A stretch of 64,000 bases of DNA, taken from NCBI RefSeq assembly GCF_013315695.1, contig NZ_CP054353.1; one strand, given 5' to 3'. Position 1 is the first letter of the stretch; each line of letters opens with the position of its first letter. This stretch comes from Escherichia coli (GTDB taxonomy: Bacteria > Pseudomonadota > Gammaproteobacteria > Enterobacterales > Enterobacteriaceae). Shown in pieces: positions 6,701-9,246 of the stretch. Position numbers: made by a program.

Positions 6701-9246
6701 AAAATACTTTACCGGGGCTGTCGACGGGGATGCGCGTGATAAGTTTACCCACTGGCTGATAAATTTTAATAAACTCAAAGAACATGCAATAGATCCGGAA
6801 AATATGGCCGCGAAGGCCTCACTCTCGCCAAAAGATACGTTAAGAGTCAGTTTTTTTATTGGCGATGAGGCGATATTTACTCTGGAGTTGCAGATGAAAG
6901 AGAACACCAGGACCGGGTGCATTGATCTGAGTAATGCTTACTTTAACGGGGTTGTCATTTGTGGTATTGACCGTCTCGAGGTTGACCTGAGCAATGCTGA
7001 AATGAACAATAGCAGATGGTATGACTGACCTGTGCGAGGTTAACCTGAAAAAGCTGACCGTTCCGGCCAGAACAAGGCCAGACTGCGCCGTTATTGATTA
7101 ACTCAGAATATGAAAGAGGGGCTGGAATGCCCCTTCTTTAATCTTATTTGCGACGCTAATCAGACGATGCATAAAACAGAGAAAATATAAAAGTAATGTA
7201 TTTTATTCATTCCGTCTGAATATAAAAAACGCGCTCATCACCGCCAAAAGGCGCGAGCTACTCTGGATCCGGTGGTGCAAACCACGCTGATTTAAAATCG
7301 AACCAGCCGAGGGGGTTCATACGTAGACCGCGCATACTGCGTTGCCCCTGAATGATCAGCCAGTGGTGGATAAGCGGCACCATTGCTTTGCTGGCGACCA
7401 GTTGCTGGCACCAGTTCGCCAGGTTCATTTCGCCATTGCGCCAGCGGGCGGCGTCGGCTTGCCAGTCGATCGGAAGACAGTGTTGGAGCAGCGGCACCTC
7501 GCACAAGTGCGCGAACAGCGAAAAATCCAGCGGCAGCGTAAAGTTGGCGCTGTTAAGCCAGATATCGCTCTCGATCTCTCCTTCATGCCACTGATCGTAG
7601 CTGATCTCTTTGATTTCCAGCGTGACCTGGTGACTTGCCAGAATCTGCTGCATGATCCCGGCAATCACTCGATGCTCAATATGATCCTGATAAAAGGTCA
7701 GGGTGAGGCTTTCCAGCCCGGCGGGTTTTTCGCAATGTGTCGGACGAGCATGGTGCCAACGGGGGAGCAGTCCATAAGCCGGGAACCACAGTTGCTGGTA
7801 CTGTTCCTCAGCGAAATAGACCAGATTAGTTGGAGAAAGCACGTAGCTTACCCAGTCCCTGACTTGCTGATTCGCCCCGCGATGGGTGCGGCTGTCGAAC
7901 AGTAAATAGTAGCAACCTTCCTCCAGGCGGCTTTCAATCTCTTTTTCCTCGCCCTGTGGCCCTTTTAGCATCAGCCCTCCGGCTGGCTCGTCGGCAATTT
8001 CCGGCAGAACCCAGACGTTAACTTCGTCGATTAATGCCCGGTAACCGAAGAAGTCATCGAATGCCTGAATTTTCAGTTGATTGGTGCTGTTGCGGATCAC
8101 CGCATACGGACCGGTGCCGATGGGATGGCTGGCAAAGTTGCTGAGGGTTTCCCATTCGCGCGGCAGGATCATCGCCGGAACTTGCCCCAGCAGTAACGGT
8201 AACCAGCGGTCCGGTTGCGTGAGATGGATATCCAGCGTCCAGGGCGTCGGCGACACAATGTCAGCAATATGCGAATAGAGCGGCAGCGTATTGATTCGTT
8301 TTAAAGAGGCGATCACGTCGTCCATTTCCAGTTCACGACCATGATGAAAATGGATCCCCGGACGCAAAAAAAAGCGCCAGTGAAGCGGTGAAATTTGCTG
8401 CCAGTGGTGGGCGATGTCCGCTTCCAGTTCCCCATTTTCCTCATTTATGCGCGTTAGCGAACTGAAGATTTGCCGGGCGATATGGGTTTCGGAACGACGC
8501 AATGCACTACCGGGCAGCAGATTACGCAACGGACGATAGTAGAGAACGCGCAGGATGTGCCGCCCCTGGCGGAAGCTGCGGCCCAGATGAGAAACCAGCA
8601 TTTGCCGCACAGTCGCTTTGTCGCCAACCAACTGCACTAGTTGATCGATACGATCCTGCTCCAGCAGGTCTTCCGCCCGCTGTTGCTGAAGCGCCAGCCC
8701 GGTATAGAGGAATGTCAGACGCGAGCGTTTACCGCGCCCGACTTCCGCTTCCCACGTCAGCCAGCCGCGATCCTGCATGGTGTTGAGCAGGGTGCGCATA
8801 TGACGACGCGAGCAACTCAGTAACGCTGCCAGTTCGTTGAGCGTGGTCTCCTGCGATTTACCCTCGCAGCATTGCCACAGGCGGATGAACTGTTGTTGCA
8901 GACGAGCAGATGGCATAAAAGGGGAACTCCTGCGCAAAAGTCAGCAATTTTATTTTCCCTATATTAAGTCAATAATTCCTAACGATGAAGCAAGGAGGTG
9001 CCCCATGCGTCAGTTTTATCAGCACTATTTTACCGCGACAGCGAAGTTGTGCTGGTTGCGTTGGTTAAGCGTCCCACAACGATTAACTATGCTTGAAGAA
9101 CTGATGCAGTGGGAGGGGAGTCATTCTGACTACTGATTTGCGGACATCATGTGTGACTGAGTATTGGTGTTAATCGCCACGCCAGCAGTGATTATCTGCT
9201 GGCTTTTTTCTTTTTGGCGATTGAGTGCCGGACGGTGTACAAACTA

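Follow-up and report, generated by a model that had tools for sequence, protein, structure and literature searches.

An Escherichia coli sgrR–sgrS–leuD locus that very probably carries the common setA-less haplotype of the genus

The stretch of E. coli DNA analyzed here (64,000 nucleotides of contig NZ_CP054353.1, referred to as the window) very probably represents the common setA-less haplotype at the Escherichia sgrR–sgrS–leuD locus, a reading to which we assign a probability of about 85%. In the known haplotype, the sgrS terminator is joined to the leuD stop codon by a spacer of ~31–33 nt. The same arrangement was found here, with 33 nt (9211..9243) between the end of sgrS (9210) and the leuD stop. 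The absence of setA is already known and is not strain-specific. It is visible in reference annotations, and Gonzalez-Alba et al. (2019, PMC6896753) list setA as one of the genes gained by the A/B1 sublineage.

Gene order around sgrR begins with thiQ, thiP, and thiB (− strand), upstream on the side of the thiB TPP riboswitch (6119..6218, − strand). These are followed by espY2 (6459..7028, + strand) and by sgrR, which encodes the transcriptional activator of sgrS in 552 codons plus a stop (7258..8916, − strand; identified by ORF and Pfam searches). A divergent sgrR/sgrS promoter region (8917..8983) has 97% identity to the K-12 sgrR–sgrS intergenic region, whose role as an SgrR-activated promoter was described previously (PMC2760817). 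The small RNA gene sgrS (8984..9210, + strand) contains sgrT (9005..9136, + strand), which codes for 43 amino acids, and converges with leuD (9244..9849, − strand). Beyond leuD are leuC, leuB, leuA, and leuL with the leu leader, all on the − strand. The interval 8917..9243 is bounded exactly by the start codon of sgrR (8916, − strand) and the stop codon of leuD (9244..9246, − strand).

The annotated order in MG1655 is sgrR, sgrS/sgrT, setA (b0070, + strand), leuD, as stated in a preliminary description of this DNA, which had also reported that setA is missing from the window and that sgrS lies next to the 3′ end of leuD. Alignment with K-12 bears this out. A 1,261-bp K-12 segment that includes setA (5594..6854 of the K-12 locus, L001) is replaced by 40 bp in the window (9210..9249; BLASTN). 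A tblastn search with K-12 SetA found no homologue in the sgrS–leuD interval or anywhere else in the 64-kb window (best E value = 0.6). The absence is a matter of gene order and thus not one of chance. An sgrS–setA operon of the K-12 type, with a SetA gene directly after the sgrS terminator on the same strand, is not present in the window. The two loci have in common sgrR, the promoter region, the base-pairing core of SgrS, a terminator of similar design, and a convergent leuD, and the first ~130 nt of sgrS differ by 3 mismatches in 131 nt. In contrast, a different and deeply diverged haplotype supplies the final ~95 nt of sgrS, the C-terminal end of SgrT, and the terminal codon and stop of leuD. 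The window also lacks the hairpin found after leuD in K-12 and has an espY2 insert on the other side of sgrR.

All three components of the SgrR–SgrS–SgrT response are intact, which upholds the earlier description of the module as retained. SgrS was recovered over the full model (Rfam RF00534, cmscan, model positions 1–232) at 227.6 bits (E = 6e-64; gathering score, 37). The gene is divergent from sgrR, has the conserved base-pairing core, and ends in an intrinsic terminator with a poly-U tail. The core, CATCATGTGTGACTGAGTATTGGTGT (9145..9170, + strand), is identical to that of K-12, and its base-pairing role has been described previously (PMC2760817), and TGTGTGACTGAGTATTGGTG within it is conserved across the Escherichia loci and most of the outgroup loci inspected. 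The terminator (9181..9215, + strand) consists of an 8-bp stem, a 7-nt loop, and a T-run, TTTTTTCTTTTT, as identified by terminator scan, Rfam alignment, and folding. The scan placed the stem at 9181..9203, followed by TTTTTTCTTT, close to the ~9182..9210 first proposed. The sgrT ORF is an intact 43 codons with an ATG start, and its product matches the SgrT profile (Pfam PF15894) at 50 bits against a cut-off of 27. SgrR contains both expected domains (SgrR_N, PF12793, 148 bits; SBP_bac_5, PF00496, 71.8 bits), has 97% amino acid identity to K-12 SgrR, and corresponds to the gene annotated as sgrR in strain MS 21-1. Judged from these intact parts and from experiments in K-12, SgrR would activate sgrS in the window, and SgrS would act through its unchanged core and through SgrT, with transcription ending at its own terminator.

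The ribosome-binding sequence of sgrT is one point of difference from K-12. The Shine-Dalgarno sequence reads AGGAGG in the window and AGGGGG in K-12, with the difference at position 8996. An unusual stem-loop sequesters this sequence in K-12 and inhibits sgrT translation (Horler & Vanderpool, PMC2760817). The AGGAGG form would be expected to abolish a K-12-type inhibitory stem-loop in the window. Because the K-12 structure inhibits sgrT and the Shine-Dalgarno sequence differs, sgrT may be better translated from the window allele than from that of K-12.

We searched complete E. coli genomes for the junction using positions 8700..9500 as the query. An uninterrupted match, and hence the setA-less junction, was obtained in 2,159 of 5,426 genomes (about 40%), among them O157:H7 strain Xuzhou21 and a Nissle derivative, and the query match splits at the end of sgrS in the other E. 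coli genomes. K-12 setA was found in 3,241 of the 5,426, with at least 99% identity in 3,228. Together, genomes with setA and genomes with the setA-less junction number 5,400 of 5,426. Almost no genome falls outside the two classes, so the gene has not been relocated in setA-less strains, a possibility rejected at the megablast level.

The same counts bear on two explanations that would make the absence of setA peculiar to this genome. The first is a recent deletion private to the strain or its close relatives; in its favor, identity to the window across 8700..9500 reaches 99% in only 43 genomes. However, a junction in the same register occurs in 2,159 complete genomes, including O157:H7, B2 strains of the Nissle/CFT073 type, and IAI39, and in three other Escherichia species, which refutes a recent strain-specific event and leaves it very improbable. 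The second is that setA was lost as an artefact of assembly or of the window. Nothing was found in its favor, and it is refuted by the window's 99.94% identity over 18.5 kb to the finished MS 21-1 chromosome and by recurrence of the junction in thousands of complete genomes; we regard it as the least credible of all the explanations considered. The suggestion that the loss is a lineage-specific difference likewise gives way to this breadth of occurrence, 2,159 of 5,426 E. coli genomes plus three further Escherichia species.

Reference annotations give the same picture. CFT073, Sakai, and IAI39 are without setA, and IAI1 and K-12 have it. These strains represent phylogroups B2, E, F, B1, and A, respectively, in a phylogroup assignment that draws on a handful of reference strains and the literature. 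The annotated order is espY2, sgrR, then leuD in Sakai (E) and IAI39 (F), and sgrT, IS200C, leuD in CFT073 (B2). Gene order and junction in this haplotype are the same as in the window, and IAI39 has 99.2% identity to the window over 10.3 kb. MS 21-1, IAI39, and CFT073 share protein accessions for SgrT, LeuD, and LeuC. The differences within the haplotype are few: CFT073 has IS200C between sgrT and leuD and lacks espY2, and O157:H7 reportedly lost the sgrT start codon (PMC2760817), unlike the window, where sgrT is intact. The IS200C transposase gene of CFT073 (4078..4536 of locus L085) occupies the small gap that loss of setA created. Synteny of the region, including setA, was drawn previously, and SgrS of CFT073 and O157 was reported to be 88% identical to that of K-12 (Horler & Vanderpool 2009, PMC2760817). 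Outside E. coli, setA is absent from E. albertii, E. whittamii, and Escherichia sp. E1V33, whose spacers differ from that of the window only by a 2-nt indel and some substitutions, few in number.

A scan of species-representative genomes with SgrR was used to place the junction in a wider context. Eighty loci were kept; E. fergusonii, E. marmotae, E. ruysiae, and the GTDB representative of E. coli are not among them. In all 76 loci from Enterobacteriaceae other than Escherichia (including Citrobacter, Salmonella, Enterobacter, Klebsiella, Raoultella, Kluyvera, Leclercia, Lelliottia, Trabulsiella, Atlantibacter, and Buttiauxella), setA directly adjoins sgrR on its sgrS-facing side; wherever leuD was captured, setA lies between sgrR and leuD. 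Full-length SetA matches from these loci have 75%–89% identity to K-12 SetA. Possession of setA is thus the ancestral condition in the family. Two loci have peculiarities of their own. In Trabulsiella odontotermitis strain 01 (L039, 4591..5653), the SetA match is in two pieces (residues 1–86 and 115–392), and the gene is perhaps disrupted. An assembly named 'Chryseobacterium sp. 18061' (L034) has a typical Enterobacteriaceae arrangement (leuC–leuD–setA–sgrR–thiB) with 80% SgrR identity and is probably mislabelled or contaminated.

The 33-nt spacer (9211..9243) has the features of a deletion scar when aligned to Citrobacter and to other Escherichia. Its TTTTGGC matches the start of the Citrobacter sgrS–setA spacer, and TTGAGTGCCGGACGG and the tail ACAAACTAACGCAT match sequence directly after the setA stop codon in Citrobacter braakii (TTGTAGTGCCGGATGG ... 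CACAAGGACTAGCGCAT). Between these two C. braakii-matching pieces, the right arm of a hairpin is gone from the window. Local alignment of the scar with the Citrobacter post-setA sequence gave z = 5.1 against 200 shuffles. Loci of Citrobacter and Salmonella have the same flanking synteny as the window and retain setA (87%–89% amino acid identity to K-12 SetA) and, unlike the window, a complete hairpin between setA and leuD. The window also resembles Citrobacter in its sgrS terminator region and at the start of the spacer. The presence of setA in all 76 outgroup loci and the Citrobacter-like remnant in the scar mark the setA-less allele as an old deletion. From an ancestral order of sgrR, sgrS/sgrT, setA, and leuD, one event removed the setA coding sequence and the right arm of the hairpin that follows it, leaving the 33-nt scar common to E. 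albertii, E. whittamii, E1V33, and ~40% of E. coli, including the B2, E, and F references. The same spacer across species points to one deletion, either older than these species or shared between them.

Comparison with K-12 revealed a sharp change in divergence within sgrT. Upstream of position 9115, the window and K-12 differ at 17 of 715 nt (2.4%); between 9115 and the 3′ end of sgrS they differ at 28 of 98 nt (28.6%; Fisher P about 1e-16). This left breakpoint between the K-12 (setA+) and window (setA-less) haplotypes is near codon 37 of sgrT, and because the haplotypes switch inside the gene they encode different SgrT C-termini (EELMQWEGSHSDY vs EGLMQWDDRNSES). SgrT of the window and K-12 match at 37 of 44 positions, counting the stop, with the differences confined to the last residues, and one SgrT protein accession is common to MS 21-1, CFT073, and IAI39. 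The right breakpoint is softer. Divergence from K-12 is about 21% (15/70) across the final ~75 nt of leuD (9244..9316) versus 2.7% further in, and outgroup agreement is 8–9 sites with the window versus 4–6 with K-12. LeuD ends in FMR-TAG in the window and FMN-TAA in K-12, and in MR-stop in Citrobacter and Salmonella.

The distribution of alleles at these sites indicates which haplotype is the outlier. At the 28 sites downstream of 9115, the window allele is shared by E. albertii, E. whittamii, and E1V33 at 24–25 and the K-12 allele at 2–3; in the flanks of the block, these species split about evenly between the two. The block has also moved. Escherichia sp. MOD1-EC7003 and K-12 have 98.5%–99.3% identity from mid-sgrS through setA (0%–4% apart across the block) and are mostly 3%–12% apart in the flanks (flanking genes, 4%–8%). 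The block is close and the flanks are distant, and therefore the block moves by recombination. We consider it probable that setA disappeared early in the history of Escherichia, that the setA-less state is ancestral in E. coli, and that setA of the K-12 type (A/B1) was regained on a ~1.4-kb block by homologous recombination. Crossovers would have occurred inside sgrT (window position 9115) and within the last ~75 nt of leuD (about 9317), and the tract would have come from an unsampled, early-branching relative. No donor was found: among the 80 loci, no setA outside Escherichia exceeds 80% DNA identity, and the best 120 matches of a SetA protein homologue search are near-100% E. coli variants with a single 94% outlier. 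K-12 setA has 77%–79% DNA identity to Citrobacter and Salmonella setA, which have 80%–84% identity to each other.

An alternative is that setA+ was the original state throughout Escherichia, and that a single deletion produced a setA-less haplotype that then spread by homologous recombination to several species and to B2, E, and F. The ancestry of setA in the family agrees with this, as does the recombinogenic nature of the locus seen in the K-12 and MOD1-EC7003 comparison and the sharp breakpoint. The 3′ half of sgrS is also only 3%–8% diverged between the window and other setA-less species, compared with mostly 3%–18% in neighboring sgrR, although lower divergence in sgrS is expected because it is a constrained RNA. 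Horizontal spread is, however, less parsimonious, requiring several independent introgressions versus one for a regain, and at the diagnostic sites it is K-12, not the window, that is the outlier. The setA+ allele is near-uniform (at least 99% identity in 3,228 of 3,241 genomes), whereas setA-less junctions are 2%–4% apart, which fits a younger setA+ allele. A published reconstruction also infers gain of setA in A/B1 (PMC6896753). We therefore regard spread of the deletion as unlikely and favor regain of setA by A/B1 strains.

Only 33 nt and a single one-directional terminator separate sgrS from the convergent leuABCD operon in the setA-less haplotype. No intrinsic terminator was predicted after leuD on the − strand (9211..9260; terminator scan). 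The sgrS terminator was considered as a bidirectional element that would also end the leu operon, and was rejected since no − strand terminator was found and the reverse hairpin is followed by GUGGCGAUU rather than a U-run. K-12 has a hairpin after leuD (GCCCGGTCAAATGACCGGGC), and outgroups have clear hairpins there, some of them bidirectional; in the window this element is missing or truncated. Transcripts of the leu operon may run antisense through sgrS toward sgrR in the window. A short sequence just 5′ of the terminator hairpin, TTAATCGCC (9171..9179), is complementary to GGCGATTGA (9216..9224) in the scar, and the predicted fold has an outer stem formed by this pair around the sgrS terminator, perhaps by chance.

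The setA–leuD pair of MG1655 is listed as a convergent excludon (PMC12288877). Since sgrS itself faces leuD in the setA-less allele, transcripts of sgrS and of the leu operon could plausibly overlap in antisense. The allele could, as a speculative extension that we consider improbable, be a direct sgrS–leuD excludon, in which readthrough of sgrS would be antisense to leuD and readthrough of leu would be antisense to SgrS and continue into sgrR. If true, this would couple sugar-phosphate stress with leucine biosynthesis in about 40% of E. coli. Regain of setA, by homologous recombination at the site from which the genus had lost it, is the more likely of the two readings, though the less striking.

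The consequences for the stress response depend on what setA contributes. In K-12, sgrS and setA form an operon in which readthrough of the sgrS terminator yields the setA transcript (Morita et al. 2015, PMC4509938; reviewed in PMC4021124), which supports the co-transcription described earlier, and readthrough is frequent and decreases under stress (PMC4509938). Without a transporter gene downstream, any readthrough of sgrS, a frequent event in K-12, would run antisense into leuD in the window, with no expression of setA. The earlier view of SetA as the 'efflux arm' of the response was overstated. SetA aids recovery only under certain conditions, a test of alpha-methylglucoside export by it gave no support, and its role 'remains elusive' (PMC4021124). 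The paralogues setB and setC are present in 5,413 and 4,281 of the 5,426 complete E. coli genomes, respectively (species-wide counts), and SetB has 52% amino acid identity to SetA. The preliminary description thus stands on the absence of setA, the K-12 gene order, the readthrough operon, and the intact regulatory module, and falls on lineage specificity and on the efflux arm. K-12 is the unusual strain at the sgrS–leuD locus, a useful caution, and conclusions from its sgrS–setA operon are therefore not transferable to phylogroups B2, E, and F, including uropathogenic and O157:H7 strains. Of more specialist interest are the differing SgrT C-termini and the direct convergence of sgrS and leuD without a leu-operon terminator between them.

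Several other features of the window were recorded. Relative to K-12 and CFT073, there is an insert of ~1 kb between the thiB TPP riboswitch and sgrR (6254..7263). It contains an ORF of 189 amino acids (6459..7028, + strand), annotated as the type III secretion system effector EspY2 in MS 21-1, O157:H7 Sakai (ECs_0073), and IAI39, with no Pfam match. Next to espY2, the 3′ end of sgrR (7258..7757) is diverged from K-12 by 7%–18% per 100 nt, versus 0%–6% in the rest of the gene. Sites in this segment favor the window about 2:1 in other Escherichia species, and the pattern suggests another recombination tract. Elsewhere in the window, matches above the Rfam gathering score were found for PssrA (35619..35709), STnc40 (41356..41425), naRNA4 (41829..41905), and tp2 (57599..57712).
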